Below are positions 809 to 64,000 of a stretch of DNA of 64,000 nt, piece by piece. The stretch comes from Raillietiella orientalis. Lineage: Eukaryota. The stretch spans positions 434,001 to 498,000 of the forward strand of contig JAYWIR010000056.1 of assembly GCA_036172245.1 (NCBI GenBank). Reading direction: 5' to 3'. The notes under the pieces were generated by a model. It was not told the DNA's origin, searched no databases, and saw nothing but the letters and a program-made list of their open reading frames with translations. Numbering within the stretch: position 1 is the stretch's first letter; each line of letters opens with the position of its first letter. The translations under genes and the position numbers were made by a program.

Positions 809-3800
809 CTAAGGAGACACCACCACCATTAGCTGAAGGAATCGCCATTCAAGATAACTTTTTTCCCAAGAAAAGTGTCTAGGCTATCCAGATAATTTAT
901 CTTTCTGTTCTTCGAGTTCTTCCCAGATCAGCGCCTGCTCTCTCAGCATCCGCGAACAGCTTCACGAACTGAGCCGACTTTTTGTTCCGTACGGATATCC
1001 ACTCCAAAGTTCTGTAGCGACTCCTGCAGTCCGGTGACCGAATCATCTCTTGAAAGATCTTCACCTTGTCAATCCGCGAATTCCGATAACGTCCAGTTGG
1101 ACAAAACGGGTTTGCTTCTGAATTTAAGACTTTTCCGCCTGCTTAGCTGGTCATTCGTGTCTCTCTGGCATCTCTAAGCATCTCTGGCTGCAAACATCTT
1201 CACACGTAGTTTAGTCGAGATCACTTTGGAGGCAAAGTGATCGCCCGCATGGACCTGTCGAATTTCGAATCTCTCTGTCCCTTCCGTTCTCTTCATCTTC
1301 CCGGCTAGGTGCGTTTTCTTGATCGCGCTTTTTGCAAGTATTAAAAGATCTTCCCAAACTTAGGACTTCTTGGAAAAGAACTAGTTTGTCTCGGAGGTCT
1401 TTTGGAGAGATGGGATGGGGTGTAGCGTTATTCCGCGCGCGCATCAGTGCAGAGTCCATCCTGATGGACTGAGAACCGAGTGTTTGCATCTTTGAGTGCC
1501 ACATGGCAAGCCATTTTGCTGCTCGGAAGCCTTAACTGAGAACATACCAGGAATGTCACGTGGAGGAACGCAACTGTGAACAGCAGCGGCTGCCACTGAG
1601 GTAAGTTGCTGTATTCCAAGTGGTCCTGATTGATGGAAGAGTAGACCCTTCTCAGCCCTGACCGGAGCCCTTGGGGCGGTTCATTTGTGAACTTGATTGC
1701 CATCTGGAAAGCAGCCGATCTTCATCCACCTCTGGTTTCCCTCCTGCATGTGCTCGCAAGAGTGTCGACGAAAGAGGAATTACCTGCAGAAGGTTGATGG
1801 GGAATTCTGGGTGGACATCTGTCGTGATCCACAGTCTGAAAGATTCGCAGGGGTGTTTCGTCTCTGCCATCATCTCAATCACATCGTTACAGAAAGAGAG
1901 AGACAGGTGACAGTTGTAGAGCAGGAGCCAACCACCGCTTTTCAACTTCTCACTCATCAGCTTCCTGGCGTACACTTCTTGCCCTTGTCCCATAGAAACT
2001 GAATGCAGATCTGGAAAGCTGTGTGATGACTCTTTCTCCCTCGTGAACTCACCAATGGCCATTTTCTTGGACAAAGATTCTATCTGCATGGACGGGTCTG
2101 CTCCCGCTGCTAGGAAGCAGATGATGGGAGTATGCGGAGTGGACTCCTCCCAAATAGCTTCGAAATCCAGAACCAAATCTTTGGCGAATTCGCAGCCGAG
2201 GGACTCTGAAAGTCGTCAAGCGTGAGTCGAATCTCTCAACTGGATCGGAGAACTTCTTGCAGGTTGTTCAACTTCCCCCAAAATCATCTGCAAGAGCTTT
2301 TACGGGTCTATGGAGATTCGTGGTTCAAGCAAGAGGGTGATGCAAGGATCCCCGACTCAGAGTTTTTTGGAACCGTGGTACAAGAGCAGACGAAGCGCCG
2401 ATTTCTGACACACGGAAGGACAGAAAAGAATGTCTCAATGGCTAAAGAACCTAGAGGCGCACAAGACCAGGCTACAAGGAGAATAAAGCTCGGTAAACAG
2501 TTGATTAGAAGGGGAAAAAAAGGAGAACAATTCCCTAAGGCATCCATAGAAAAAATTGTAAAGACAGATGTGACCTCGAGGAAGAAGAGAAGAACACAGT
2601 GTTGCATGGGTAGAAATCGGAAAGTACAAACCCCTTGAAAGTTTACCACCGGATTTCTTTGGAAACTCTTGAACCTTATGACAGACCATTAGCGAATCAA
2701 CTACAGTTTGAAGATAGATCGGCTGTGAAAGAAACCTGACAGAAAGGCCACAAGTAAAAAGAGACACAGAAATGATCCTTTGGCGACCCGTATTGGCGGC
2801 TGCGTGGCTATGGTTTCCGCGCTTGGTATCAAACGCTGCAAGTCCGAATCCCCACGTGGAGAATCGATGCCGAGAATGGGGGGTGCGTCGTGGGTTTCGA
2901 GTCCCCTCCGCAGAATGACACTAGTTGGCCTACAGGCTTCGGGTATGGCACTAGTGGAAGCCGGAAACCCCCGGATGCTCCCATTGACTGGCCAGGATTG
3001 AAAGTTGACCTCGGGTCCCTCCAGGACATCAAGGAGCCTGTTCCCTTCAGAATTGTACAGATGGAGCCATCCTTCTCTTTCGGGGGGGGGGGGGGGAACC
3101 CTCAATCTCGTACCATGGGGCTGGTCGATATCCCTCTCGGTGGTTGCCTCCCTGCAGTGTAAGAAGCGCACTGCTCTCTTCGGGGAGTGACCTTTCATGA
3201 AAATTTGAACGCATCCCTTTGGGTTTCTCTTCAGAGGAGTAAACAAGGAGTGGATCCTTTTCGGGAGATCCCTGCAGAGCGAATAAGAAGAGGTTCCCTT
3301 TGGGGTTCCTTTCAGAGACAACCTGGGGGAGGGTTCCCTTCCGGGTTCCCTCCCAAGAGTAAGAGAGGAACGGACTTCTCCCTCCGGGGTTTCCTGTAAT
3401 CATAGGGTGGTCTCCCTAACTCTTGAAGAGTTGCGAGCACCCTCGGGTGGCGTCAACAGCGTTAAAGGGCTTCGTGAGCCTTCTTAAGAATGCGAACTGT
3501 TCCTCAGCACTCCCTGAGAGCCAAAAAAGATAAATCCGAAAAAAAAAGAGGGAAAAGCTGGAAGAAACGGTCCTTTGCAGAGCACAGTTTTCCGAACGCC
3601 ACTCGAGATAATGTGGTTGGGAACGAAAGATGCGACTTTATCTTGAGTGAGATTCTGTTTCGGTTTGAGTACACCAAAGTACGTCCGGCGGTTTTCTCCC
3701 CACTGCCTTGCCATCGTCTCGTTTTGATTTTTCGTGCACTGAAACCTCCGGGTCCTTTATCTTTCGGGCGCTTGAGCAAACAGCATCCTTGTGCAACCTG

Positions 3801-15800: not shown

Positions 15801-18800
15801 CAGCTGAATTCGTTCGCCGGACTACCATCGTCGGTCAGACGCTGTCCTCCCTCAAAGCCACCCATCTTTTCGCAGAAGAATGCATGACTGCGCCCATCTT
15901 TGTAATGATCATCGCCCACGAGTGCACTTCTCTTGTCCGTCAGCTGGATGCCATCTGGTGCGTCCCTTTTTGTCTTAAACGGTAGCTGCCCGTGGTTCGA
16001 GACGAAAAAGGGGGGATGCAAACCATAGCTGAGGCTGACCCTTTTACGAGATCCTTGGTGCTGTTTCACGGACCCCAAGGGCTCCCTCGTTGGCCGAGAG
16101 GTTAAAGAGACGGTGGACTCCCTACTAACGCGCTGCCTTTTTTACCGAAGTGGCCTCTGCTCCAGCAACAAACGCGACGGACTTGCCCTCGAGGGAGTCC
16201 ACGAGAAATGGCAGGGCCCGTCGAGGCTTCACCGTCAAGTGGACCACTCGCGCGCATCGCATCAGCGCGAGTGGTCCACTTGCCAGCGAGGAAGAATCTG
16301 TTTTTCTGCATCTCCGGAAACGCTGACAGGAGCGTGCACTCACAATGCAGTTGGTGATTTGTCTGAAGAGCTTTTTCTTTGATGCGCACGCTGGGAATTG
16401 CGAAGGAAGGGGACGGGGATGGAAGGGGATAGGTCCTGTCTCCAGACAGCCTGTTTGGAAAGTGCCCTAGCGGCAGCACGAATTCTCTGAAGTGTGCCGG
16501 AAGCCAAACCTTGAGCGATTCGTTCCATGAAGGCTTGATGCATGATATCCCTTCCTCCGCAACCACTGGGTTCAACTTCCGCTGGAACAGGATGAGCACA
16601 CAGTCCATGATCCTCATTATGAGGTGAGGAGGACGACCGAGCTTGCGCACGGTGGCTTAAAGAGACCGTGGGTCTGAAGCAACGTGAGCGTGCAGCGCTA
16701 CCTATGTGAGTTGGTTTGATCGTGTTGAGCGCTGCTTCCGCTTCCTCTATGGCAGGCCTGGCTGCTTCCAGCTTCATCTGTGCCAAGGCTTTGTCTCTCT
16801 CGATCTGAGCGACAATCTCCTCAGCGATCTCCTTGGATCTTTCGATTTGCTTTCTGATGATCTCTTCTTCGTTCACCCTGTTGGTGACTTCGAGAAGCAC
16901 CTGGAATGGAAAGGAAAGGGGTGCTTTGAGCGCTCTTGAATTCGGCCGACGGTGAACCAACTAAAAGGTGGCGCGACCGCCAAAGACACCTTTAGCGACG
17001 AGAATAGGTGGCTCACCCTGCTGGCTTTCTCCGTGACGAGAGTAATTTCTCTCTCCATTATGGAGAGTTCCTTCTTCAGCTGCACGGCAGATGTGGCGGC
17101 TTCCTCCAGCTTTGCCAACCCGGAGTCCATGCGCCTCGTAGTCTCTTCGATCTCCTTCTTCTTGTCGGCGTAGGTGTTCTTGTATACCACGATGAAAGAC
17201 ATGTAGGATTTAGGGGTGACGAATGTGGTCCGGCGAAACCTGAGCGGAGAACTGGGAACGCAGAATTCCACTTTCCCCACCTCTTGAAATACTCTTCGCA
17301 GACTTCCGACACTCCGGTCTGCACGTTGCTGAGTGCTACTTCCAGATTGGCCTTGGTTTCAGGGGTGCAGAGGATGTCCAGCTTCTCCAGAAAGTGCCGT
17401 GAAATCTGGTAGAGAGCCTCTTCCGGCCAGTTGTAGAACCAGTCGATGGTGCAGCCTGATGTCAGCCCCGGGAACTTCAAAGTCCGGTTCCTGAACTTTT
17501 CTCCCATCTGCGAAGAAGAAGGAAATGTCATTCCTCCCTCTTTCGAAAGACAGCATCACTGCTCGCTCTCTGCGCAGTGGTGCCAGGTGCCAGATGTTCT
17601 GCTGCTCAGCGATGCAAACCGCTTTGCTTTGCAACAGCTTGGAGGTAAAGTGACCTTTGAGAGGGATTGTCTACACGAACCGCGGGTGGTTTCGTAGTAA
17701 AGCAAGGACATGCTCCAGCAGTTGCTCAGAAACTGTTTCCAGGTAACTGCTGGAAAAATTTACATAAAAAAATGCAAGGGGAGGATGCTTCGCCACAGCC
17801 TCCTCCGTTTCCTCAATCCTTTCTCACTTCGCCGCCCTCATTGCTAGCGAGATGGCACGCAGCAGGTGTTCATGAGAGGGAATATTCCTCGCCGGTGTGA
17901 GGGCTCCTTCAAGCGGGCTCCACGGGAGCCGGAGGGGCTGGAGGGCGGCTGTCACGGCTGTGTAACCACGTAGACTTCCGTTCGCAACCGGGGACTTTCA
18001 ATTTTATGGCAGCTTCCTTGCTCGAGTCTACTGGTTAATGGGTTGCCGGCGGCTCGACCATGTAGGTCTGTGCTCAGCTGCGTGGAAGGTGTCACAGCCG
18101 ATGCTCCCAGAAGATTCTCCTATTGTGGTCTCGCGAGAACTTCTTCATCCCGGCTGGCTATGGCAAAGCCTGAGCTTCCAGTGGACTCTACTTCTGAAGT
18201 AGAGCACCATTTTGCTCCTGATGTGCTACTCCCGTCGCTGAGACATCTTCCATCCCCTTAGCACTTCACCGGATCCCACCATCCCGGGGATTCTGCGACG
18301 ATGCTCTGATGGACGCTGGTACTCTGTCGGCGAAGAGGGAAGTGGGCAGTCTTTCGACTTGCCTCCTCAAGTGCTTCAACAGAAGATTTTTACTGAAGGC
18401 CGCGTCCACTGCTATCGATGCCGATCAAAATCCCGAACGATCATAATAAATGAATATGTATGTTCATTACATGTATTCATATATATATAATATCGCTTCT
18501 CAGCCTTTTGGCTAAGACCACAGTATATAATTTTAACAATATATATGTACAATTAATGCATACAATATATAAAGTTACGAATCAATTATTTTATCAATAC
18601 ATGTATTATAAAATTATATGTTGTATAATATAATTAATATATAACGTACAATCTTCATAATATATATTGATACACATTATAGAGAAAATAAATGCATATG
18701 CTTATTATGTATATTAATGTATACATTTGTACATAGAATGATGTACAAATTTATTTAAACATACATGTTTATAAATACTTATTTCCATATATGCTATTCA

Positions 18801-21800
18801 TAAAATTAATATGCACATTGAAGATAATTAAAAATAAATATATATGCTTATTTTTTATGTTAATACATGTTTACATATAATGAATATTGAATTATCAAAA
18901 ATGAAAAGTAATGAAGGCACTTAAAGATGGCGGAAAACAACGAAAAGGCAAACGAATCGAAAAAACAAAAAGGAAATTTCGTGTGACATTCCCTACCATT
19001 CTTGATGACATTCAAGAAATGCAAATTTGTCAGTTAATGATGAATCTCATATTCGGCATTTTGATCGTTTGACAAATATACGTTTTGTAATTCGATATTT
19101 AAATATTCCATCGATATATATGTATTTGTATATAAATATGCAGCAATACATACAATAAACGCATATATCTATTTTATATGATCTTTAATACATATTAATT
19201 ATATACTGATACACATTATCAATCACATTCACCGTATTTATGTCAATACATATTAATAAATATGAACGTTGAGATAAGTCTGTATACTAATTTCTATACG
19301 AAGGTATGTATTAATAATGCATGCAATCAGTATATATATTTATTTTTTATAATCTTTAGAATATATAATAGTCTATGTTTGAGTGTACATATTAATATAT
19401 GTAATGAACACATATATTTTGTGAGGTCTTTCAGGATTTCGATCGTTTGGGATTTCGGCGTTCGGAATGGGAAACCAAACCTTTTTTTATTGGAGCGCTT
19501 TCGCGCTACCTTGGAGCACCAGATCCTGTCTCCGTTCGGAAGCTGTTTCGGGCGAGATCAGAGATCATTTGGGTGGACCTCTCAGTCCAGGATGCCACTT
19601 CGCCGATGTATTCCCGTGGCAGCCTCCTCGTCGCCGATGCAGTGGATGGTGATTTTTCCTACAGAGCCTGGGGCTCGAAGCCTTCTCATGGTCTTGCCGA
19701 AGTCTTGATGGAGTAGAGAGGACAGCCGTTTGTTTCAGAGGAGACAGACGTACTAATGATCTTCCCCCCATTTCTTCAGTTTTCGATTCGATCTCCCTAG
19801 TTGCTTTGGAAATTTTAAACTTGAATTCGATTGAATTCAGAGAAATTGGGAGCAATCCATTCGTGCGCCTCTGGTAACACATGATGTGCTGTTTCGCCCT
19901 CGTGGACTCCAGAGGAGAACGGAAGTGGTCGAACTCCGTGCTATCCTCTCTCTCCGGAGGAGGGAGGACGGCTTGGGACGAGGCGACGAACGTCTCAGGA
20001 AACTTGAGGTGCTCCCGTTTCAGGAACAGGGAACGAGGAGGCGGGAGTCTAAGGCGATAGGAAAATTGCTCCAGCCCAGGAAAGAAAAATCCGGAATCTT
20101 CCTGTTTTCACGGGGCTTTCAGGATGTGCAAAATTCAACATCTGAGGTTTAGGAGGAACGAAAATCCGCTTTCAGTTGCTCCTGACACTCCCGAAGGTAG
20201 CGTTCCAGGGACATCAGAAGAACTGAGAGCTACGCGCACGAGAACGGAAGGATCGTTTCCGGATGCCGGTCAGGGGAGGACTACCCGAAGGAATCCTGCT
20301 TCCGAGAGCTCGTCTCCTGGAAGATGCACGAGTCCAGGTTCCAGTCTGTTTCGGGGCACGCCCAGGGTTCCCACTTGCGGAAATTCTCCCTTCCACTTGG
20401 TAACAAGTGGATAGAAAGAGAATCAAAAGACCCCTAGGGAAGCAGCTGGAAGCAGCTTGCCAGGGGTCATTTTGCCTATGAGAACACCGTCCACCATACT
20501 ACGAAAGCGTCCTGAAAACGTGCAGGCTTGCCGGCCTATTCTCGTTCCTGGCAGCCACGCGACGATGAGCCAACCCAGGTTTCTTGTTCGGACTGTGGGA
20601 ACGTATTGGGGGCTCCGTCCAGGAAGGTGGACCATGCAATCTGTGAAGGAGATGAGTTTGTACCTCAGAAGTTAACGATTCAAGGGAACACGCTGTGCTC
20701 TTTGTGCCGGGAAGGAGTGAAGTGCATCGTTCCCAACGCTTCCCATCGCCTGTGGCCAACTTGGAGGGCGCATTAAGATGCATTTTACCGGAGAGAAACA
20801 CAGGACAATGTGCAGGTTCTGCCTCGTTCTGTATATGAAGAAGTCCATCACGCTTTCTGGAGTCTGAGGACGTTTCGGGTGCTCTCTTTTCATCACAGGC
20901 ATCAATTCAGAGATGATTTCCGCTTGTTCGTCGCGAGTGAACAAGTTGAAGAACACTCCTATGGGTTGCCATTATAGCTGTTCCCGCAGGTCTGCGGTGT
21001 TTACGTTACCGGATGACAGAACGTTGTTCAGATACTCCAGGAAGCCTTCCTCTTTGATATCATTGTCCGTGAAGATGAAGGTAGTCCCTTTTCCTTGGAC
21101 ACCGCACGTCCTGTACAGAACCTTCAGGTCCTCCAAGAAATTCGCGGTGTTGTACGATCTAAAAGTTCCCACCCGTTACCTGGGTTTCGTGATCTACATG
21201 TCTACCTGGTCAGAGTGATTTGGAAGGTTTTGTATCCTGCTATAAAACTGGAAAGTTTGGTCAACGATTTCTTTCCCGATCCTCCTACTCCAATCAGGAG
21301 GGCGTTGCCACCGGGATTGCGGATGATTCTGGACACCTGTTTTTTTTTTTTTTTTTCAATTACAAAGATCAAGTCATCATCATCACCACCACCACCAACA
21401 ACAACAACACAAATCGGTGAACTAACGTAGGTGATACAAGAGCGACTATGGGATAAGTACAAAGAGTGTGCACATCCTGTTCCCTTTCCCAGGTACCCCA
21501 TTCGTTAAGCAAGAACCTAGCACACGATCTCTCGCTCATCGGAAAGCAGCTCAGTGCGATGAATGAAAAGTAGTGGTGGCAATTAAAAATGGCAGGAAAC
21601 AACGAAAAGACAAACGAATCGAAAAAACAAGAAGGAAATTTCGTTTTTCATTTTCCTACCATTCTTGATGACATTCAAGAAATGCAGATTTGTCAGTTAA
21701 TGATGAATCCCATTTTCGGCATTTTTGACACTTTGTAATTCGATACTTGTGTATACATTTCGTATGCATTTTTGTTATATGTGAATGAGCGTACATAACA

Positions 21801-24800
21801 AACGTATGTATTTATTTTTCATGATGTTTGAGGATGCCGAACCAAACCCTCTGTGAAGCATCGGAGAGGGAAGCCACGTGGAGGAGCGGGGATAAGGTGC
21901 GCAGCTTATTCCGTGTGTTGCTCACCGGAAGATTCTCCCGACAGCGGGCAGTTCCCGGTCGTGCCAGGACTGGCCTCATAAACGGGAATCAAGTGGGTGA
22001 GCGCATGCAGGAGAGGAAGGACAGGCTGCTCTCGGTCCGAGAGGTAAAGCGAGGCGTTTGGAGCGCGAGGGAGCGCGCGCATCCCATGGCAGGAGCGCAC
22101 GAACTCGGGCGACCCCGTTCCAGCATCCTCGGGACGGACTCGGGGAGGATGTGCCCGGACGCACTCAGAATGGCTCTCCCCCCCCTGACCTTCACGATGT
22201 GAAGCATCGCGTCTTCGAAGAAGACGATGTCCATCGGCGATCCGCGGATGATGTCGTTGTACTGGCCGAGGAACATTTTCAGTCTGTCGTCGAGGACCTC
22301 GAAGGAGGGGAACGGCTCGTATATCTTCGGCATCTCGACGTCGACGTCCTCCAGCTCCTCCCCCGTGGGCTCCGGGGCGTCCCTGGCAGCGGCATCCCAG
22401 TTGCGGGCGGGGCACCGGCCTCGGGCTTCCCTCCCACCTCATGAAGTCCACGAAGTAGGTCTCCTCCTCGATGTACTCCCTGTAGTGCGGGCCCAACTCG
22501 ATGCCCACGGCGTCCAGCGCCAGGTTGCGGAAGCAGTCCACGTCCGCCTTGCTGATGAACCTGCACGTCACGCTCAGAGGAGGCATCTCGTCGCTCCCGC
22601 CGCCTACCGGTCACTAATTACGCGGCTGCACTCGTGCTTCCACAGCTTCATGAGGATCTCCTCGCTGTCCACCACCGACGGGACGGAGCTGATCATCCCC
22701 TGCCAGATCCTGCTGAGGTCCCTCAGGTTGAAGACGTAGTGGAACTTCGCCGGGGTAGGCAGCATCAGGTTCTGCGAAGAGAGAGGGGTTGGCGAGTTTC
22801 CTCCCTCCCCCATGCAGCGCGGCGCCCGTGGGGTTGCGCAGAAACGGGTGCCTTCAGAGGCGCCCGCGCCTCGCGGCGGCGCCGGATGCTCTCCACGGGG
22901 TGCCTGGACCTCCCCCTCCTCCTCCTTCGAGTCCACAAACTTTCCCTCTGCTCAAGCGCTTGGGAAGGCAGCAATGTGCCTCTCCAACCTCCCTGGGCGA
23001 AGAGCCCTTCCAGGACGGGCTGGTGCTCCGGAGGCGTTTCCGGGTTCCCGAGAGCCACTCTCACCTTGATGCTGCTCCAGACGTTCCTGGTCAGTGCCAC
23101 CAGCTTCAGTGCCAGTGCCTGAACGCTATCACTGAAGCCGCGCTTGGCACAGAAGTGACCCCTGGCCAGCACAGAGAATATCCGGTCCACGGAGGCTTGT
23201 GATGGGAGGGTGCAGTTGAAGATGCAGAAGTGGCGCTTGAGTCTGGAGGGGATGTCGTTGTGCCCTCCTCCTGGAAGCAGAAAGGTGGTGGAGCCGCCGT
23301 CGCTTCCGGGAGGAAGGGGGGACGAGCGCCGGATCTCCTTCCGCCCCCGCCTACGAAAGGCACCCAAAGAACCTGGACCTTCCACCCTGCCAGATCTAGG
23401 ACCCACTCCAACCCGGTGGGACCGACTCCCTAAGCGCCAAGGGCCCGTCACCTCCTCAAAGGCCTCGGGCTCGGAAGTGACCTTCCCCAGGGCACTCGCC
23501 TCACCAGGGTGAGTCATGGCGGCCATGAACTGCACGTCGGTGATGGTCACGAACTCGCCCGGCTTCTCCAGGCTGTAGAAGCCATCCATCTCCATCGTCT
23601 GCCGCAGGATCTCGTTGGTCACCTGATCCCCGTACTCGTTGATGTGGGGCATGCCGACATCGTCGATAAAGATGGCCATCCTCTTGCCGGCCGGCGGGCC
23701 GTAGGTGTTCCCCGTCCGCTTGTCCACAAAACTTTCAATGGTGCGCTGTGAGGGAGAGGAGAGAAAGGTAACCAGGGAGGGAGGAAGGGGTCGAAGCGAA
23801 CCTGGAAATACAGGGGCGTCGACGCTGAGGAGAAGTTGAAGTGCCGGTACACGTGCGTCTCAGAGCTGAGCGTCTTCAGGTAAGCCAGCGTCATCACCGT
23901 CTTGGCCGATCCTTGCTCTCCGATCAGCAGCACAGCCTGGCAATGGGTGGGGAGCGGTCAGCTCTCGGCCACGCGCAGAGATGGCCGTGTGGTTGTGGTC
24001 TCCGTGCGCGAATCCAAGCGAAACCTCACGTGGAGGATCGACGACGAGAATGGATTCCGAGTCCCCCACCCGCCGGACGATGCTCGTTGGCCTGCAGGAT
24101 TCGGGCGCGGCACTGGGGGAATGTGGAAACCAGATGCCCCCGTTGACTGGTCGGGATTGAAAGTTGACCCTCTAGGGTCTTCCCAAGAATCAAGGAGTTA
24201 TCCGGGATTTCCCTCCAATTGTGAAAATGGGGTCATCTCCCCTTCGAGGCAGACCGTTCATCGCATACCGTGGATCTGGATGATACCCCACTCGGAGGGT
24301 TGGCCAGAATGTCCAAGAAGCTCGCTGCCCCCTTCGGGAGCCCCCTTTAGAAAAATTGGTAAACCTCCCTTTTGGGTTCTCTTCGGAGGAGGAAACAAGA
24401 AACGGTTCCTTTGAGGGTTCCCTCCGAAGAAGAAATTCCAGGAGCGGATAATTTCCGGGCTTCCCTTGGAGAATAAATGAGGAGTGACTTCCCCTGAGGA
24501 GGGTTCCTCCGGAGATGATACGAAAGAGGTTCTCTTGGTTTTTCCCTTGGAAGACAACCAGGGAGAGTTCCCTTCCTCCAAAGCGTAAGAGGAACGGACT
24601 CCTCCTTCCCCCGGAGCCTTCCTGGATTCATAGGGTGTTCCTCTCACGTGGTGACCCCTATACACGAAGAGTTACACGCACGCTCGAGTGGCGTGGAGAG
24701 TGTTAAAGAGCTCTATGAGCTCCCCCTACGGAGACGAACGGTTTTTTAGCACTTAGAGGCAGAAGGGAAGAGGAGGGTAAGGGAAAGAAGAGCTGGCGAA

Positions 24801-27800: not shown

Positions 27801-30800
27801 TCGAAATTCCTGCACGCCGTGCGCCGACAAGCCGATGCGCACCCCCTGTGGGTGCCTTCCAACGAAACCAACTCACCTGAGAAATCATATTGAATTCCAA
27901 GACCTTCATCTTGTACTGAAGATTCTGGTTGCACCACTTATAAAGCTGGTGGAAGCTCGAGTGGAATAGTGGTCTCAGGACCTCCGATTCGCTTGGACGT
28001 CTGGTAAGAAGCCAGGCTTGCAGGATGACGGTCCAGCTCAGCAGTGAGGAACTCATATAAACCTACAACATTGGAGACAGTGCAGACGGAAAGTGATCAA
28101 GCGGAATCCTGGATGCTCCCCTTCCCGCAAGACGCTCCAAATATTCCAGAAAGCGAAAATTCTGGTTGGTAGACTAATCCCGCTTGTCTTTTCGAACCAG
28201 GCATGCGTTTGCCTTCAAGCTACTTCGGTGGGCCAAGCGAACGTGGTGGAGAACGTTTTTCTGGTGGAGCGGAACTCGCGGCAGGAGTGCACAGAAAATT
28301 CGAGTGAGCACAGTGGACGAAGAGCCAACCGCGCTCCGTGGTTTGGGAAGTCGGTGAATGTTTCGAGTTCGATTTCGAAGGTGACCTTTCGAGGGTACTC
28401 TCTCATTGGGAAAAATAGCAATGGGAGCGTCGAGTCCGCATACGTTCGTATTTTTACTTGCTTCCCTGAGGAAACTGTGAGTTCAGCGGGATCTTCTGGG
28501 GGCACTCTAAGGATCGCGCGATGAGCGATTTATCTGCGTTCGGAAGGAGCTGATCGTTCCGGTAGATTTCTCTTTCGTTGCCCGCAACGCGCTTATCGAT
28601 GTCATTTCGGACGAACGGACGATGTGCTTTTGAGTGCATCACCCAGGCAACTGATTCGCGGAGCGATGGAACCGGTCGAATGGAAGGTCAAGGTCTCTTT
28701 ATCCCTGAGCTTACTCGATCCACTACCATGGGGGAAGCGAACCCGATGATTTCTCCTTTCGCATAGCTGGGTACGAACGCCCAATTTCAAGTGAGGGCCA
28801 CCTGGGTTCTGCCAGAAAGCATCCACCATCTGATCCCATTCAATTCCCCGTAAATCCCGAGACGGGTTGCTTGAGACTAAGAGGAGATTTTGCGGTTCAT
28901 AGCAGCCCTGGCTCCCCAGTACGAACGCCTGAGGACTCGCGTTCGTTCTTCATGGTAACAGCACAGTTTTCTTCCTCCGTGCAAGTAGTCGTACTTCCTC
29001 CGAAGACAAGGGGCATGCTTTCGTGCTTTCCCATCGAATGGGGCCTGGGCTGAATGCACGTGTCAGGGGCGGGGAGTTTTAACACTTCACTGTTTCCTTT
29101 GGAGCATTGTGTGCGTGCGTGCATGCGTTTTTCTTTTAGAAATGTGATTTTCGTTCTTTGCTGGGATTCGAAGAAGAGGAAAGTCATGTACTTCACGGGA
29201 GATGTTGAACTCATCTACTCGTTTGTGTCCTTCGTGACGTTCTACGCTTCCTTTTTGGTGGTGCTGCTTACAAGACGGAAGCATCGGAGAATCACCTTCT
29301 GCATCGCTACGGTTCTCGTCGCGAACGGATTCGCCATCTCCTTCGGCATCCTGTCACCTTCCTGGCAGAGTGGGACCGTGACTGTGTACACCAGATTAAG
29401 CGACCAGGACAAAATCATGGACAAAGTTCAAGTCGGGGTGCACTTCGGGCTGGAGAGCATGAAAATCTCTTTGGCGAATAGAGAAGGCTCGCTGCTTCTC
29501 AATGCATCCCGGAATCTCGATCTCAGCGAGAAGCTGGATTACGCGGCATGTCTGTCAAGCGCGTACCAGAATATTCTGCCAGTCAAGGGACTGCCTGATG
29601 CTATAATGACCGTCGTCTCCCATCTGAATGTGTATTCCAAATGGAAGTACGTCTCACTGGGTCCTTCCGGAATAGAATGGATGAAGCAGTATTACCAAGC
29701 TGGTTACATAGCCAAGTCGATGTTAGTGTACGCTGGCTTTGTGTGGATCTTCACGTTTTATTTTTTCATCATGATTCCGGGATACGCATATCATGGATTG
29801 GGATGCACATCCATTTTCACATTGGCCTCTCCTCTTGCATTCTATGCTCCCCTTTCAGAGTACCCCTTCGTGGTTCACGTGGAAGGCAAGTTCCTCATGG
29901 TCTCTTTCGATTTGGCCTTCTGGGTACTGGTCGTGAGTGGCCTGGTGTCCTTGACAACCACATGTGCTCTGTTCGTTTACCAGGATGTCTTGAAGAATAA
30001 ACTCATCACTGCCTTGGACTTGGATTACGACACCTCTCTTTTCACTTTGTACGCAGAAAGTGATTCACTAGAAAGGTATGAACTTTATCAATGGAAACGT
30101 CGTTTCTTGAGAATCCTATCTCATCAGCGAGAGAGGAAGACTCTCTCCTATCTTCCTCCTGGTCTTTTGAGCGACCTTGGTCAGTGTTTTTCCTATGCGA
30201 AGTTAAGAGATCCCATCACCTCGAGCCTGAACTACGTTTGCAGCCCCTCTGCAAAACCTAGTTCACGTTCGTTGACTCGCATCTGCTCCAAAAACATGAC
30301 GATCGTTCTATCCAGAGTATAGAATGTGCTCCTGGCCTCTTCCCGCTACCAACAGTTGCCTCAATCCCCTCGTTCCCTCTTCCGCCTGCTCCCCCGACTG
30401 GAGGATGCAGCTGTTTTCAGGCATACGACCATGAGGTCTCCCCCGAGGCTTCGAGCGCGAGGTTCCATCTTCATGCTAAGCAGATGATTTCATCCTCTTA
30501 GCATCGATGTTCCTCCTGCAATTACTGTCAAGACGAGCATATTGTTAGAGGTTGAGGATGACTCCTTAAAGCAATGCAGATTACCCTCTAGCACTTCTGT
30601 CTGAGCTGCTGGCTGCTGAGATCGAGCCTGCAGGTGTAATGAGAACTATCCAGAAGCCAGCATCACAAAATAAGATCAGCTAATCCTCGATAGGTTCGGT
30701 GATGCTGACTGGTAGGCATGGCTGCGGACCAGGGACATCACGACATTCGAAAGCTCCTACCGTTATCGTACTGCACGGCAGGAGCTTTTGAATCCCTCGG

Positions 30801-33800
30801 AACGTGAAATTCGATGTCTTCAATCAACGGATGCATTCGTTTAGAGGGAAGACTCTCCCGCGCTACTGCCGCTTTAAAGTTTTCCATCATTATTAATGAT
30901 ACATGTTCAAAACATCAGAGGGTACGATCGGGACCGTGTATGCACTTGCATTGAAGTTCTGTCACGAGAATGAATTTCTGTGTTTGCTCTTCTTTATTTT
31001 GATTTGCGATCTTCAACTTGTAGGAATCAAGCGGACTCTATGGTAGCACAACCAGTCCTTATGTCGCCTGCCCCCACAAACGAGAACGACCCCTGCCCTA
31101 TTTACATTTCGATGATGTTCGTCGCTGATGATTTCAAAACGGCAAAAAGCAGGAAGAAATAGCCCAGCAAATCGAGGTCGTTGAAAACGTAAGAGGTTGC
31201 CATTGCCGGCTGGTCAATTAAAAAGGGAAAGAATGCTCTTCGCTCCAGAAGAATCTGGACAGTCTTTCTCGTGCGAGTGATGCGCGTTTCGACCAAAAAG
31301 AGACACGCCCGAGAGGTTTCTGGAAATGCGCGTCGGCAGAACACAGACCGACCCTTCCCATGTCAGCTTTGGTCTCCTTTCGCGCGGAGGTGGTGCGGCC
31401 GCGCCTGCGCGCATGGGTGCGGTCCGCTTCAGCATCGACCAGAACACGGGCATCCCAGCAAACATCAAGGGCTTCCTTGCTGGAACAAGTGCTTGAACGA
31501 ATGCCCTCTTAGCGAACGGCAGTCTAAAATCAAGCAGAGGAAAATACACCATTGTGGTCAGTATGGCACATCCCTAAGGCGTGGCAATTTCAGTGCCGAG
31601 TTTCGTGAAACGAGGCGAGTGAAACCGAACGCGGGAGGGGGATAGAGCGATTTCCTGGTTCTTGGGATCATCGCGAGGGTTTGCTTAGAAGGAACGGAGA
31701 ATCGAGGGATCTGTCCCAGTTCAAGGTCAATCTTTCTCGTGTGTGGAATCTCATCCCAGCGTGCTCCCAGGACGCCATTTTGAACGAGAAAACGCGAAAC
31801 TTTCGAGATCCATCGATCTGCCGTCGGGGGCCGATGCCACTGAGCTCGTGTTTTGGGACGCGCGGGTGGCGTCCTCGCATGTCCTTCGTCTGTGTGCGTG
31901 CGTCGGTGTTCTTCAGCCAGGCATCTCTAGAGTTGCCCGAAAGGCAAACTTGGGCGCTTTTCTGGACTTTGTCCCTGTTTGGCGTTGCAGCAAGGTGTGT
32001 GAACCTCTCGAGCCAAATTCCTCGAATATCCGGCGGCTATTTTTTGGAAGTTGTCCGGACTTGCTGCGTGCGCGCAAACCAGCACGGACGGCCAAAGTTT
32101 CCAGCATCCCTCGTCCGAGGAAGCCCAAGGAAGTGGCTGCGTCGTTTGGAGCTCTCCATCCGTGCGATGGGAGCGCCGATGTCGACTGTGAGGATCGGAA
32201 CCTCCGAACCGTTCGTCGCGGAGCGCGAGCACACGAGGCGCTGCCGCAGAAGACGCTTCTTGGATGGGCTGGTGTGGCTCGGCCTTGGTTCCCTCGGTCC
32301 ACAAGGTCGCAGGTTCGAACCTCGGCAGCGATGTACCTGACGAGCAACGAGATACCTCTGAATATCTGCTGTGCACCAGATCTTCAGCAGCAAAAATGGG
32401 AATCTGGACAAATCGAAGAAACGGAGGGTGGGTTGCGGAAATGTTCTCTTCCGCATCTCTCCACATAATCCCAAATATCTTGAACAGGATGGTCAAGCAG
32501 ACGCAAATCTGCAAGCTTTGGTTTGAAGACGCCGATTATCTGGGATTCGAATAATCGGCGTCCTCGGATCCGGCATCTTTAGACCCATTGAACTTTATCC
32601 CATTCGAAGGACGATTCGGCATCTTTGAACGAAAGACCTTTCCATTCGGAGGATCGCAGGCAGCGACCTCTAAAGTAAACGCGGAGTGCTTGACAACCCA
32701 GAAGGAAAGGAGCAAAGCCTTCCGAAGAGCACTAGTTCTTTTCCATGGTAAGAAGATCGAGAACTACTTTAAGAATAACTGCGAGGATATCAGGCAACCG
32801 CTTCGGAACACGGAGATGCTGAGATCGCTCAACAAAGATGCTCAGTTACTCAGTAGCGGAAAGCCAAGAAAGAGGTGCCAGAGGTGTTCCCCTGTTGATC
32901 GAAAATGAACTACTGAGAAGAGTGTAAGGGAGATGCAACTGGATGTTAGAATGGAGACAGCACTGTTCAATGAGGCCAGAAGGGAACTTAAACATCTAAC
33001 ATCTCCACCTCTGCTGATGTGGCTGAAGCAAAAATGTGGTCCAGAGATCTGAGAGAGAGTGTCCCGGTCTTCGAGGATCTTGTGCCTTTAGAGTCATCAT
33101 CACGACTGCCTCCGAACTCAGGCCCTAAGGGTCTTCTGAGGGTCTTCCAGGAAGCCTGGAAATCAAAGAACTGCTTCATGTAGCTTGAGATTCTGGAACG
33201 ACAGCTCTCTCAGAAGGACCATTCCTTCTATTGGTGGCGGCTGGACGAAATGGAGGCGCCAATGCCGCCATTGCTTTGTGCACGGTTATGGATACATGGG
33301 AACTTCCGCTAGGCCATCTCGAAGGACGAAAGCTTGCAGCCTCAAAGGACAACGAGGAAGTGCAATGGGTTTCCCTCCTTCCGAAAGATCTGGGCAGTCT
33401 TTTCACCGCCCGAGAATCCTGACGCTCTCCCGGTCTTTTTTGCGTTCCCCTTGGTTATGACACACGGAGAACCTCCTCATCAGAAATTGGCCGTTTGGCC
33501 TCTGGCATTCAGAAAGCGCGAAACATCTGCGGGGTCCCTGCATCTATTAACACGAAAGCGACAATTGTGTTTTACTGTTCGCTACATGTTGTGCCTCCAG
33601 ATGCAGATTTTCCGGATTTGTGAGGTTTCTAGCATCGCATCAGAGGGCGGATTCCTTTTCTTTGCTTTGCTTTCCTCGTACAGAAGCGGAAGGACAGCGC
33701 TATTTCTTTATCGAGCCTTCATTCTGAATGAAATCTTCTAGAGCTTTCGAGACAGCCGGGCAATCATCTCTTGGAGCCTCAGGTGGATCAGAAAGAACCA

Positions 33801-36800
33801 TGGCACGCCTGTGAACTCCCATCCCTGATCCAGGTGACGCGGAGATGAAATTTTCGACTCGGATACCACGGACGGCATCAATGGTTGTGATTGATGTAGG
33901 AGCGACGACGGCGCTTTCGTTTCTTCCTTTACCGTGGCCACGCTGCCGTTGAAAGAGTGCAAAGGGAAGGGTGGCGCAGAGCCAGAAATGGTGAAGGGCG
34001 GACCTACGTGACATCAGCAGGAGGCAGGCAAGAGACGCGAACGTCAGAACCGCGGACGAGCTCATGTTGCAACAGCCCCGATTACCATTCCGTTGCGAGA
34101 CACCGTGGCAGGAGATGCGTTGTCAATGTTCTCCGGTTCGAAGATGATCTTGCAGTTTGGCGACATGGGGATGCGATCCCCGTTCGCCAAGGTCAGCGTC
34201 TTGTTGTCGTCAAGGACCGAGTTGAGGTTTTCTATCCAGACAGCATCCACGGGTCCATCCAGTACCAGCCACATGTGCTCGTCTATGAAGAAGAGGCTCG
34301 CTAATCTGCTCATTGGCACTCTCGTACCTGCCTTTCTTGGTTTTCAGAGTCCTGCGCCAAAGGGAAGAAAAGATCCCATCCGTCCAGTCGTTGGTAGCTA
34401 TATCGATCCTGCCAAACATCTGCGACACCGTGATGGCCTTGGGGTTCATCCTCACTTCCCTGTAGATTTTCAGGTTGCTGTTGCGAGCTGGTTCTTTCAG
34501 GGTTCCCCTCCCGTCCACAAATCCGCGACCCAAAGAACTCCGTCTCGGCGGATCCCACTGTGGTGGGCGGCTCTACTTGGTGCAACACCCCGCTCGGTAC
34601 ACAAGTCGTCGATCTCCCTCCCTTTCCCCCCGTCCTCCAGACGGGATGCTCGACGCGATCCGGATTCCGGAAACGAGGGTTTCCGCTGGCAGAGTCGCTC
34701 AGCGTGGACGCTCTGGGCGCTGTCCGGCGGCACGAGGTTTCCGCTTGCCGGGGTTTGGTGGCAGCAGCGGTTCTCCAGGGACGGAGCGGCACGTCTAACA
34801 TGCCCTACCCAACACCGGAGGTTCTTTTGGAGTCTTTTTTTGGAGACAGAGAACGTAGTAGCTGGCAACTCCAACGAGTCAGAACCTCGGCAATGCTGGA
34901 CTCTCCTCCGAAGAAACGGTGGAGAGCAGAGACCTCGCCTTCACAGGAAGAGCGAGGCATAGCAAAAGCGTCAACCATCCGCTGGTGCAGGAACCCTACT
35001 AAATAGTGGACTCCCTATTTTTTTCCCTACAACCGTGCGTGAACGCAGATGCGGTTTGGAAACCTAGCTCAAGACGTCACTCCTTGAAATCCTCTCAGAA
35101 GACCCGATCGCTGGCCATTCCGGGTCGTGACCTCCGCCGGAACGCTCCTGCGCTGCACGAATGCAGCAGCATTTGCTATGACATTATCAACGACCGTTTT
35201 CTTACGTGGGTGGAAGTCCTTTACGTGCAGGTCTCTGGCGGGTTTTAACCTCGTGACGCAGTCCGCGCGGAACGGGTGCGTTGCCATGCAGCCGTCGGCG
35301 CAGTTCGGATCGAGCGACAGCACCATCCTGGTCCAGGAAAATTAGCACTTGATGAGAGGACGTGCGCGATCTCTTTCGCATCCTCACGGAACACCGTCAT
35401 CCTCTCCGCAAGAGAAAGCGCCATTTTGTGATACACTGGCAACAGAGACGTATGTATCGGAATTGAAATAGGAGCCAGCTCTGGCGGACATTTTGTTCTG
35501 CATGCTCTTCTGCAGTCAGCGTGAAGTAGGAGCAGAGAACTTGCCGAAATCCTCCTGGCCGAAGCTTTCCTCCCATTTGGCATGGACTCTGGCAACAGTC
35601 ATTAGGGAGGCTGGTGACTTCTGAGCTTCCTTTCCCGTCTTGTAAGAAAGCAATCAGGATGCTGGGGAGCACATTCTTCTCACAACGGGCCAGTAGAAGA
35701 TGCCTAGCTCCTTGTCATCTGTACATTGTGAGGGGAGATGCACGAGTTGGTTGCCACCTGTGCAGCTGGTTTCAGCTGCCAGACACAGGTACACCCAGAG
35801 GCCAGGCACACCAGCAGCACCAGCACTCATCATGCTGCCCCTTTGCAGAAGCCCATCTATGCAGCTGAAGGGTTTTGAGTGCCAGTCCGGTCCGATCGAG
35901 GCTGCGTTCTGCTTGCCCTTCCTTTGTCAGGGATGTCAGTGCTCTTTTTCTACTACATTCATTGAGGGTTTGTGACGACCGCTGGCGGATGATTGATTCT
36001 CCACACCCACGCACACAGGCCGCCTCGCGAGGTGGGCTAACGAATCCATTCGAAGGGCTCCCCCAAAGCTTGATGGAAGGTTTGATCCTGCCATTATTCA
36101 AGGCAGCAGCTTGCCCAGACTTGACACTGGCAGCTGCCTTCTCGGGAACACCACCGCAAGAATTCGAGTCCTCTATAGGCAGGTCATGACTGACCCAAAT
36201 TTTCTCAGAATTGCCGTCCAAAGTTTCGATCGGAACCTTCATCATGGGACTAAGAATCATCTTACAGCAAGAAGTCATGGGGAGCACTGAAATCGATAGG
36301 GAACCGAGATAGGGACAAATCTTCGGGAACCACGCTGGAAGTTCTTCCCTTTCTCGGGATGAGTTGGTCTCCAAGTGACCGACATTATTTTGATGATTTG
36401 AAAATTTTGGAGAGGAGGAACAACGCCATCCTGGTAAATTTTGCTCTTGCACTGCCGCCAAGATCACATGCTCTTGGCGCTCTTCCCTGAAATGACGTCG
36501 GATGCCTCGAAACAGACAGAAGAGAACTTTGATCTTCTTTCCTGAAGGTTTCTGAGGGCTTTCCCGCGGACATGCAACTGTTAGCGCCGCTGTCCCTCTT
36601 TTCGGACCCAAAGTCCGATTTCGCCCCGTACCCCACTGCTTTGAGGGTGCTCTGGAATTAGCCAGAACCTTCGCGGGCGGTGGAAGCGCTGCAGTTTTGC
36701 TAAGGAGGGCCGTTCGAGATGGAGTTCTGAAAACTCCTTAGGAGTGTTCGCAGAACGCAAAGCAGGTGGTGGTGACTCGCTGCTGTGAGCGAAGTTCGGT

Positions 36801-39800: not shown

Positions 39801-42800
39801 AACAGTCCGTTTCTTTTTTTTCTGGTTCTCCAAGTACTCAAAGAACCGTTCGTCTGATGGCCCACGAAGCTCTTCCACGCTGTTCCCTACACCCGAGGGC
39901 GCGTGTAACTCTTCAATTCATAGGAAGCACCCCAGGAGGAGACCACCCTATGAGTCCGGGAAAGGCTCCAGATCGTCCTGGAGTGACCAGGTGTCGACCA
40001 GTGCCTCACACGAAGCCTACAGGTCAACAGGCGCCCTTCTGGGGGTGGGAAGGAGAAAATCAAAACCCGCGACGCACCCTCTGTTCACATGGTGATTCGA
40101 ACCGGAAACGCTTGGCACCACGCTCGCGCCACACGACTGCCAACGCAGGCATCTGGCTACGAGGAGATCAGAAAGAGCGAAGCAATTCTCTATTTCGGAA
40201 ACCATCAGCGAGAGCACTGAGGTGTGCGCATTACAGATTTTAGTGACCCCAAACTGTTCCTCCAGCGCCTCATGGAGAGGCAATCGAACTCTAACGATGT
40301 GACTTAGAGGACGTCAGAGAACGAAGAAGCGTCGACGAATCGACATGCTGCTTTCAGAACTACGAAGTTTTCAGCGATCACTCGGACCGTCCAACGTCTC
40401 GATGACCGACGCTTAAAATGGAAGATGCCAAGCGAAACCTCTCCACCCGAGGAACGCCTCCTCTTCCCCCTCTTCTAGAGAAGGAGCAAGCGAGAAGCAG
40501 AAAACCGATTCGGCCTAGCTTGTTCGTCTCATCTCGGCGCCTACCGGTAGTGGGCACGGAATGCCAAACCTCTTTGATGATGCCGAGGGAGGAGACGTGA
40601 GCACAAACAGGTAAGCCACACGACTCGCGTTGTTAGCAAGTTCGCTGCAGAGGACGTGGTAAAAAGTGAAGCGTTTGACATCCGGATGTCTTATAAACCA
40701 ACATCATCCTTGGAAACCGCACCGTATCTTCCCGCGAAAAGGGTTCCAGATTTCCGCAAGAAAGGAATCATCATAGGAAGAGTGTGGAGGATGGAAAAAT
40801 AAAACCCAAAACGGGTTCACCCTTCCCAATCGAAGTTCAATGCTCACTGACCCGGGTCAAGAAGCAAAACGAAAAGACCGCTGCGAATTCTTACCTGGGT
40901 GGGGACACAGTTCAGAAAGCTCAGTATGTTTAGTCCCGCTTCTTGGATCCGGAAGTATACAGATCGAATGAGGGAGTGGATGGATGAATGGGATACTTGG
41001 AGAAGCTGCATCAACCAGTATTCGACGCTTCCTTCAGCTCTCACAGGTTTCTCCAGCTAGGATGGAAACAGGTCATCTCGAGTTCGCGGGTAGATTAGTA
41101 AGGGCACGTGGACTCGTCAAGGATACGGATTCGTCCACCTTCCGCAGGCCGGCACAAGACTGGCCCTCAAGAAAAGGAAACGCTGAACTACGCGGAAGTT
41201 CATAAAATTCTTAATCGACTGCTTCCCTTCAATTCCTGGGTGGAATAGCTTCGAGGGAAAATCAGAGGAATACTCAGAGATGCCAAGAGAGAAGGAAGGG
41301 GAGACGACACCTCAGTTGCATCACTTCAATCTTGGGATGTGTTTCTTGGGAAGCAGAATTCACGTTAAAACAGGATCTCTATCACTTCTATTCATAGGAG
41401 GATCTCGACTTTTTACATCTACAAAGCTGGTAGGGTTCCTTGTCTCAAGATTTCCACGACAAATCGTTGGCAGTCTTCTCAAGAAGTCAAAGAACACCTA
41501 GTTGGAGCTCTTTCGACCACTTAGCTGGTGTTGCTTCGACCACCTGCCTCGCGCCATTCATCACTCACAACTGTTTCAAAAGCTTTGGAAATAGGTGCAG
41601 GAATGCAGAGGAGAGATTTTCTACACTGTCTCTGAGTTCCTCGACGTTCCCAGGTCCGCGTTGTCGGCGAAGGGCTGGTGCACGGAGGACGTTGAAGGTT
41701 GCAGGCAGGTTGGTGCGCCGAAGGCTTCGTTTCACGGGCTCGCGTCGCCGCAGCTCGGACCGGCCCGCATCCCCGTGTCCTGCGCTGAGGTCCTTTGCCG
41801 CAGCTCGGGCCCGCTCGCATCCCCGTGTCCTGTGCTGAGGTCCTTTGCCGCAGCTCGGGCCCGCTCGCATCCCCGTGTCCTGCACTGAGGTTCTTCGCCA
41901 CCGCGAGGAGTCTGCTCGCGTTTGGTGAGGACAAAAGTGTCTTCAGGTGTCCCGCCTACATCGTGGTCCGCTCGTGGTTCGAAGTTATCCTATCCTATGC
42001 GTCCATTATGAGTTCCGCGAATTACACGGTGGATGGTTGATTTTTACTTCGATCTGATTCAGCAATCCTCTTCCAAGGAAGAAAAGATCTTGCTGAATCT
42101 TCTTTCGGAAAGTGCATCCTCCGGAAACATCCTTGTTTCAAAAAGTCATCAGGATACGGAAAAATCTCCAGGGAACGGACTGCTCATTCGGATTCGATCG
42201 TGAATCTCGTCACGTCAACTGGAGGTGTCTGAAGATGGATGTGGGACCAGTCCTTTCGAAGCTGCGTGCACTGGAGCTAAGGGTGCCAGCATTCCTCGAA
42301 GCCTCTCGTGATGAGTCGCCCCATCGCGAACAGCAGTCAGGTACAGATGAGAGCTGGTGTCCATGGCCACCACGAACTTTTCGATTTTGCAGACTCCCAG
42401 CCTACCCAACATTCACCGCAGCTCCTTGGCTTCGGGAGACTTTGGCCCTCCCGGGCTTAGTTCGAAAGCCCGGGCCCCTGAATCCAAAAAATCAAAATCC
42501 CGAATGAATCAGAATCGGGAGAAATCTTAGAGATTCCGAAAGATCACAAAAAATAAATATATTATAAATATATAGTACTCTTATATTGAAAATACATAAA
42601 TTGATATATATTATAAGGATTATAAAAACAATGTACATGCATATTAGGCATACTTCTATATAGATTAATATACAAATTCATTTTAATATACATATTCATT
42701 AATACAGATATCATTAATGGTAATATCATTTTAACATATATATTTATTAAAATTTATAAACATATATGTCAATATGAATAATGATATGTATTATCATGTA

Positions 42801-63905: not shown

Positions 63906-64000
63906 CTGCAGAAAGACGCGGTCCTCAGGAGATTAGGGGAGGATGGCAGCGTCCCTCCTCCCCACCTGGAGCGAATCCCACGCGTCCGCGAACGTCCTCT

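Follow-up and report, generated by a model that had tools for sequence, protein, structure and literature searches.

In the 64,000-nucleotide stretch of Raillietiella orientalis DNA analysed here (positions 434,001 to 498,000 of contig JAYWIR010000056.1, GenBank assembly GCA_036172245.1; hereafter the window), a plus-strand open reading frame (ORF) at 29054-30322 encodes a member of the DUOXA (DuoxA) family of dual oxidase maturation factors, and it lies antisense within an intron of a gene for an axonemal dynein heavy chain. That it belongs to the family is secure, and what is new here is a very divergent, single-exon member of an otherwise known family. DUOXA proteins are obligatory partners of the dual oxidases (DUOX), whose extracellular H2O2 serves cuticle and matrix cross-linking, gut immunity and wound signalling. 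Taken as a whole, the explanation to which we give somewhat better than even chances is that this would be a functional, single-exon gene, the regular DUOXA of its lineage, of a kind that we call copepod-type (defined below), and nested in its host in an ordinary way.

A preliminary description of this DNA had placed the frame in the DUOXA/moladietz family and named a search with the Pfam DuoxA profile as a check. That search bears the assignment out, since PF10204 matches the ORF with 121 bits (E 6e-35, against a cut-off of 23.3), and residues 45-325 of the translation (P0001, whose numbering we use for the window protein throughout) cover profile positions 7-279 of 279, in effect the full profile, in one stretch (29186-30028, plus strand). 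A family hidden Markov model (HMM) built without the window row recognises the window protein at E 4.6e-54. A HMMER search over 1.84 billion representative proteins gave 88 matches at E<=1e-3, 19 at E<=1e-10 and none at E<=1e-30, with a best identity of 30%; those of the matches that carry names come from ticks, aphids, wasps and nematodes and are dual oxidase maturation factors. Searched against the PDB, a profile made from the ORF and its 88 homologues reaches DUOXA1 of human (1.9e-84) and mouse (1.9e-81), whereas a single-sequence phmmer search of the ORF against solved structures returned nothing at E 0.01, and a word-indexed homology search with the window protein returned nothing at E 0.001.

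The predicted structure points the same way. The nearest clusters in the ESM Atlas are all DuoxA (scores 0.94-0.95), and an AlphaFold2 model made from a DUOXA alignment (mean predicted local distance difference test score, pLDDT, 78.7; predicted template modelling score 0.74) has putative helices at model residues 6-29, 34-56, 164-196, 198-220 and 243-269, strands at 61-69, 79-87, 91-98 and 112-118, short helices within 119-148, a C-terminal helix and, linking helices 4 and 5, a hairpin; in other words, the DuoxA domain comprises five predicted helices with a four-strand, claudin-like domain between helices 2 and 3. The top three Foldseek matches are DUOXA1 chains (7d3e_B, 6wxu_B and 6wxr_B; E 6e-14 to 7e-12, template modelling (TM) score 0.75-0.79 on the target), human DUOXA1 being the best (7d3e_B, E 5.6e-14, TM 0.77). 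The structural report describes DUOXA1 as five transmembrane helices plus a claudin-like domain, with four strands and two helices between the second and third of them (PMC7794343), and the architecture predicted for the window protein agrees with that description. We take the modelled fold match as corroboration and not as independent proof. Its full-length PF10204 match and its predicted fold ally the window protein with DUOXA1 and DUOXA2 of vertebrates, moladietz/NIP of Drosophila and DOXA-1 of C. elegans, and it keeps the family residues W104, G132-L133, G179-L180-P181, W209, A216-G217, P242 and G296, although its identity to the solved DUOXA1 chains is no more than 21-23%. After the DUOXA1 chains Foldseek ranks claudins and TARP gamma subunits, whose weaker matches (E 2e-4 to 1e-2) span the extracellular sheet and the last four helices; a claudin-like resemblance has been noted for DUOXA1 itself (PMC7794343). 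Membership of the claudin/TARP group was considered and ruled out: identity is 6-13% and the TM score 0.2-0.6, a fifth helix is missing from those proteins, and Pfam finds no claudin domain in the window protein.

How far the protein has diverged can be gauged with the same Pfam profile, which scored in all 21 proteins scanned: 335-385 bits for tick, aphid, wasp, a vertebrate-like sequence and similar, 243 bits for a nematode, 158 bits for an ostracod cluster (Darwinula stevensoni, P0026), 148 bits for a springtail, 84-154 bits for ten copepod-type sequences and 119-121 bits for the window protein. By copepod-type, a poorly described group, we mean the proteins of Tigriopus kingsejongensis (Tk03304, P0019) and Lepeophtheirus salmonis (LOC121125033, P0073), together with the environmental proteins P0008, P0009, P0033, P0046, P0063, P0065 and P0077. 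Because the score of the window protein falls inside their range, divergence alone is no sign of the neofunctionalisation proposed earlier. Much the same picture comes from the 39 columns at which at least 80% of canonical rows agree, where the consensus residue is kept by the window protein at 22 of 38, by full-length copepod-type rows at 21-29 of 36-38 and by canonical rows at 31-37 of 38-39.

The individual motif changes reported in the preliminary description are present, with HIGL..VN.TL altered at residue 130, SEKLDY standing at residue 158 and GLP.PILTVAEYF altered at residue 179; the equation of SEKLDY with NERF.W is less secure, since the register is ambiguous there and alignment A2 pairs NASRNL with NERF.W. 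Loss of an N-glycosylation sequon is likewise real: K137-I138-S139 (29462-29470, plus strand) stands where the family has N-I-T, which is human DUOXA1 N109 in the register of the profile match. The window protein has lysine in a column whose consensus, asparagine, occupies 95% of the canonical rows and 10 of the 11 copepod-type ones, but the sequon is better called a conserved feature than a strict definition of the family, as one copepod-type row has arginine and P0046 reads FRVTF (alignment A1). The only N-x-S/T sequon remaining in the extracellular domain is N150-A151-S152 (29501-29509, plus strand), which aligns with the vertebrate LNET region. A lineage-specific 13-residue loop insertion (29633-29671, plus strand; about nine extra residues in alignments A1 and A2) follows the helix of the residue-179 motif, and it overlaps a stretch modelled at pLDDT <50 (model residues 150-159, that is P0001 194-203). 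Canonical DUOXAs read PG.R where the window protein has T.R, and their N-terminal peptide follows WF.AFR..GGP..Y, whereas that of the window protein is very short or unlike it. In mammals, the DUOXA N-terminal peptide influences the balance between H2O2 and superoxide.

The frame itself comprises 422 sense codons and a TAG, and its ATG comes right after an upstream TGA. A geometric model that takes its stop-codon frequency from the window itself (0.031 per codon, counted across the six frames) predicts 0.007 ORFs as long as this one in 64 kb, and by the base composition of the intron the single-frame chance is P ~3e-9. The preliminary description called it the longest ORF in the window, which is correct for frames counted from ATG to stop (the runner-up has 399 amino acids, 62474-63673, minus strand) and incorrect for frames counted from stop to stop, of which 62477-63889 (minus strand) has 471 codons; that longer frame lies in sequence of 62% G+C and has a weak DHC_N1 match. 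G+C content per codon position in the DUOXA frame (0.465/0.37/0.62) resembles that of the host exons (0.54/0.415/0.69), the remaining intron being flat. Correlation of relative synonymous codon usage with the host exons was tried and discarded as evidence, because it is 0.46 in the frame, 0.38-0.42 in the rest of the intron and 0.475 in one antisense frame. Frame length together with strong divergence argues for selection on 29054-30322: identity to library proteins nowhere exceeds 30%, yet 422 codons are open, against a chance expectation of 0.007 such ORFs, and 22 of 38 consensus residues are kept. The earlier statement that the frame is 'kept open by selection' is supported by that argument.

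Where translation begins is a matter of likelihood. The most likely coding sequence starts at Met45 and gives a protein of 378 amino acids (29186-30322, plus strand), with Met24 (29123) and Met1 (29054) as alternatives. Homology, by Pfam and by the family HMM, begins at residues 45-46, and the base at -3 is G for Met45 and T for both Met1 and Met24. Lysines and arginines, to which the positive-inside rule for membrane proteins applies, number six in residues 24-44, none in 45-52 and five in the LTRRKHRRI loop after helix 1. The N terminus of DUOXA1 is extracellular (PMC7794343), and taken together these points make Met45 the likelier start, with a very short acidic N-terminal peptide of 8-9 residues (MYFTGDVE) before the first transmembrane helix. 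The peptide that would follow Met24, MRFSFRN, is faintly like WF.AFR, and is so placed by MAFFT and left unaligned by the family HMM.

Judged by its sequence, the host encodes an axonemal dynein heavy chain of the outer-arm, DNAH5-like type. Pfam matches were found in 20 of the 150 longest minus-strand frames, all 20 to dynein heavy chain families, and they are ordered as in the protein, DHC_N1 lying near 63 kb at one end and AAA_lid_11 near 0.4 kb at the other, so that one minus-strand dynein gene spans the whole window. Four exon-bearing frames were compared with solved structures, and for three of them human DNAH5 is the best match, followed by a DNAH8-like chain and the Chlamydomonas outer-arm gamma chain; the 471-codon frame at 62477-63889 returned nothing at E 0.001. 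The intron that houses the DUOXA frame (28063-34085, minus strand) is 6023 nt long, has GT..AG borders and is in phase 0. On the minus strand, the upstream exon (34086-34283, AAA2 region, corresponding to human DNAH5 2330-2395 at 130.6 bits) ends AAC GGA ATG at 34086, with GT at 34085-34084, and after an AG at 28064-28063 the downstream exon (27877-28062, DNAH5 2396-2457, 55.6 bits) opens with GTT TAT ATG at 28062. The two exons align without gaps to contiguous human DNAH5 residues, 2395 and 2396, so that the intron coordinates given in the preliminary description are exact, and so is its claim of antisense nesting, for the whole ORF lies inside the intron.

Nested intronic antisense genes of animals have just this form, a complete gene within one intron on the opposite strand of a larger gene, and the DUOXA/dynein nesting is an ordinary case of a common genome architecture in which we detected nothing unusual. 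This particular pair of host and guest was not met in the literature on intronless or copepod DUOXA, no search having been aimed at nested genes in dynein introns. Conservation of the host is good: across 68 aligned residues its AAA2 exon follows human DNAH5 nearly position by position, another exon has 45-51% identity to other phyla (which have 48-62% among themselves), and human, spider, mollusc and rotifer sequences all stand at roughly the same distance from the dynein exons. A word-indexed search with a dynein exon, over proteins of <=2000 amino acids, gave as its best matches spiders at 50-51% and, over shorter spans, lobster at 53% and barnacle at 56%. With such a host the divergence of the DUOXA appears specific to that gene, a result that fits a fast-evolving copepod-type ortholog and a relaxed paralog alike.

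Which DUOXAs are closest to it is best asked of trees, and ours used 44 of the 88 homologues, picked beforehand for near-full coverage, with fragments dropped. A quick IQ-TREE run (LG+C20+F+G4) places the window protein with the ostracod and copepod-type clade (Shimodaira-Hasegawa-like approximate likelihood ratio test, SH-aLRT, 87), and without the ostracod row it joins the ten copepod-type rows (SH-aLRT 93.8); forcing it to join nine tick and insect rows costs 23.5 log-likelihood units and is rejected by the approximately unbiased (AU) test (p 0.0014). In addition, the window and copepod-type proteins have two derived states in common: both have lost the arginine of GR.YR.AGY, and the G of PG(I/V)R has given way to T (in the copepod type, in 10 of 11 rows). 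They also share the tail motifs LD(Y/F)DT, DS..R and RRF..L (alignments A1 and A2). The likeness thus extends to sister placement, the T.R motif, similarly low Pfam scores and single-ORF genes, although identity to copepod-type DUOXAs is only 19-23%. A copepod-type placement is consistent with these sequences, if not firmly established by them. Of the results here, it is the DUOXA tree alone that hints at a crustacean-like source. A word-indexed search with a copepod-type alignment (A5) returned only a member of the query alignment, and a literature search combining dual oxidase maturation factor with copepod found nothing.

Vertebrate DUOXA genes are multi-exon. In the window, by contrast, the whole of the aligned DuoxA profile lies in one stretch of one frame, so that the statement of the preliminary description that the gene has no introns holds for the coding region, introns in the untranslated region (UTR) being possible. 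Among 2260 ORF pieces from the window, the family HMM found no other DuoxA-like piece (next best E 3.4). A scan of metagenome contigs with copepod-type alignment A4 confirmed two loci among 91 pattern matches, and in both (2/2) the DUOXA is a single ORF, encoding the 503-amino-acid P0009 in locus L001 and the 392-amino-acid P0077 (DuoxA 121 bits) in locus L002. The preliminary description had regarded an intronless state across the clade as counting against retroposition; what we find is that state in part, for the copepod-type grouping and as far as these two loci. On this evidence the intronless state is probably inherited and the gene probably no recent retrocopy. The DUOXA of L002 lies outside any dynein gene, with a CNNM gene, a kinase and a mitochondrial carrier as neighbours; the CNNM-type metal transporter occupies one 960-codon frame (L002 4025-6904, plus strand), and the nearby protein kinase is split between two frames. 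Around P0009, L001 3393-5012 is G+C-rich enough for frames of 441-484 codons to be open on both strands. A search of the literature on intronless DUOXA gave nothing relevant by title or abstract.

Several points weigh against the reading of a regular, copepod-type DUOXA, and they are best considered together. The AlphaFold2 model rests on a DUOXA alignment, and its fold match is thus not fully independent of the family assignment. The window protein departs from the consensus at conserved sites that most copepod-type members keep (N137K, N158S, G253S and G286D), these members retaining the N-(V/I)-T sequon, the N of NE.F and GLPNP where the window protein has changed. The tick and insect group used in the AU test was named after the tree had been seen, the terminal branch of the window protein is 2.04 changes per site long and drew the program's long-branch warning, and the support values are all below 95; the copepod-type affinity could be the long-branch attraction of a fast-evolving paralog. 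Conservation of the host makes the DUOXA divergence gene-specific, which is what a relaxed or neofunctionalised copy would lead one to expect as well. As to introns, the genome behind L002 is apparently intron-poor, so that its single-exon DUOXA says less about an intron-rich one, and the Lepeophtheirus salmonis isoforms of 319 and 311 amino acids suggest an intron in that species. Finally, DUOX domains were not found in the window, neither in 150 minus-strand ORFs, which have only dynein families, nor in 61 other plus-strand ORFs, whereas mammalian DUOXA genes stand head-to-head with DUOX (PMC11721785). The last point is softened by a survey of 121 sequences of the dual oxidase maturation factor (DuoxMF) family, which recognises two ancient clades in bilaterians, the genes of one standing head-to-head with Duox and those of the other far from it (PMC11721785), so that a DUOXA at a distance from DUOX is not unusual.

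Of the competing accounts, one that leaves the identity of the gene untouched and alters its gene model only is that the gene is not strictly intronless, having a non-coding first exon that is joined to an acceptor at 29139, a tail spliced from 30076, or both, so that the 422-codon frame over-reads its ends; we consider this possible, though rather doubtful. It is encouraged by a good pyrimidine tract and AG upstream of Met45 (gcgtttttcttttag, 29125-29139, plus strand), which may be the acceptor of an intron in the 5' UTR or, under a Met24 start, simply code for RFSFR, and by a donor-like GAAAG|GTATGA at codon 341 (30071-30081, plus strand), inside the frame and a candidate only. Past residue 341 the periodicity of G+C content by codon position is lost (0.41/0.48/0.48), and model residues 331-378 are predicted at pLDDT <50. 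Yet the tail looks like a DUOXA tail: its cytosolic motifs (30014-30118, plus strand) are common to the copepod type, which has ELDYDTPW, DS..RR and VRRFRESL there (alignments A1 and A2), WKRRFLRIL aligns with VRRFRESL beyond residue 341, and phmmer alignments to three library proteins reach query residues 366-368. We accordingly read the sequence past the donor-like site as coding, and the window has no DuoxA-like exon elsewhere that splicing could join to it. That the frame is instead a silent relic, an unexpressed or dying copy open by chance, strikes us as the least credible of the accounts considered here. The plus strand has no AATAAA from the stop codon to 36995, its first canonical poly(A) signal being an ATTAAA at 31217-31222, 895 nt downstream of the stop, and several family-conserved residues have been replaced, both of which suit a relic; 422 open codons at such divergence are, however, unexpected without selection, the coding-type bias in third-position G+C is retained, and so are, in a model of high confidence, the five predicted hydrophobic helices and the strand pattern.

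The account given in the preliminary description was that of a retroposed and neofunctionalised paralog, in which the mRNA of a multi-exon DUOXA was reverse-transcribed long ago and the copy has since been under selection, evolving fast and perhaps acquiring a role in flagellated cells. We regard this as unlikely, if still worth weighing. A single-exon coding region within an intron-rich host gene, divergence confined to the guest while the host dynein is conserved, and an N-terminal peptide that is short or unlike the family's are all what it would lead one to expect; so are unique changes at conserved sites that include loss of the N109-type, DUOX-contacting glycan site (PMC7794343), and paralogous DuoxMF clades are known in bilaterians (PMC11721785). 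However, the marks of retroposition are missing, and the claim of a retroposed paralog is unsupported: there is no poly(A) or A-rich tract after the stop (30323-31300), no target-site duplication (direct repeats of 14-27 nt and 65-93% identity occur in the intron, none of them flanking the gene), and neither a transposon nor any other domain in the 16 ORFs that lie within or near the intron, other domains being absent from 70 further ORFs as well. Their absence is weak evidence, for an old insertion would have lost such marks. Beyond this, the nearest clade is single-exon in both loci fetched, the profile score sits within the range of that clade, placement with canonical arthropod sequences is rejected by the AU test, and the 64-kb window contains no second DuoxA-like piece that could belong to a parent gene. 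Pushed further, the idea becomes one of a canonical DUOXA elsewhere in the genome and a nested old retrogene with a new DUOX pairing or another partner, transcribed in flagellated or ciliated cells and tying reactive oxygen species to axonemal cells; this is speculation, and we would give it only a very slender chance.

Other features of the window belong to the dynein gene and its introns. A tandem repeat of a 50-nt G+C-rich unit (41747-41899; 3.1 copies, 92% matches) lies within a dynein intron, and an AAA6-region exon (1655-2215, minus strand) has 14 extra in-frame residues relative to human DNAH5, either a lineage-specific insertion or a very short intron. A+T-rich islands at 18001-20000 and at about 36.9-37.1, 42.5-43.1, 45.3-45.9 and 56.3-56.6 kb are probably A+T-rich intronic repeats; G+C content at 18-20 kb is 0.38 against about 0.5 overall, and AWTAAA hexamers, of which the window has 73 against 46 expected from shuffles, cluster in these islands. 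At the other extreme, 22001-24000 and 62001-64000 are 62-63% G+C and hold long overlapping open frames in several frames (62477-63889, minus strand, 471 codons; 62715-63647, plus strand, 311 codons; 22768-23859, minus strand, 364 codons), only short parts of which match dynein domains. The frames at 35775-36737 (minus strand, 321 codons) and 34012-34962 (plus strand, 316 codons) have no Pfam match and are probably chance frames in G+C-rich flanks of introns or exons. No Rfam family reached its gathering score in the window.

If the gene is indeed the regular, copepod-type DUOXA that we favour, what it does can be proposed from the better-studied members of the family. DuoxMF proteins bind dual oxidase, permit its exit from the endoplasmic reticulum and stay on in the H2O2-producing complex as an auxiliary subunit (PMC7794343; PMC11721785). 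By homology, 29186-30322 (plus strand) would be a functional single-exon gene set antisense in the 6-kb DNAH5-like intron, and its product, a predicted five-helix membrane protein with a claudin-like extracellular domain, would bind the organism's dual oxidase in the endoplasmic reticulum, see to its delivery to the plasma membrane and stay with it as an auxiliary subunit. Both the intronless state and the divergence would then have been inherited within a fast-evolving, copepod-type lineage. In the human complex, as the structural report has it, the N109 glycan of DUOXA1 contacts both subunits extensively, DUOX1 included, and the aromatic residues F8, F10 and Y11 of the DUOXA1 N-terminal peptide insert into DUOX1 (PMC7794343). 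Given a lost N109-type glycan site and a short or altered N terminus, the DUOX interface of the window protein probably differs in detail, whether by co-evolution with a diverged DUOX or through a new role.

For annotation the sequence is useful in a plain sense, as it has no relative above 30% identity among 1.84 billion cluster representatives. Nesting in a dynein intron would matter for the biology of either gene only if the expression of the two proves to be coupled. For the family at large, a DUOXA that has changed this much is a useful place to ask which DUOXA features the maturation of DUOX truly needs.

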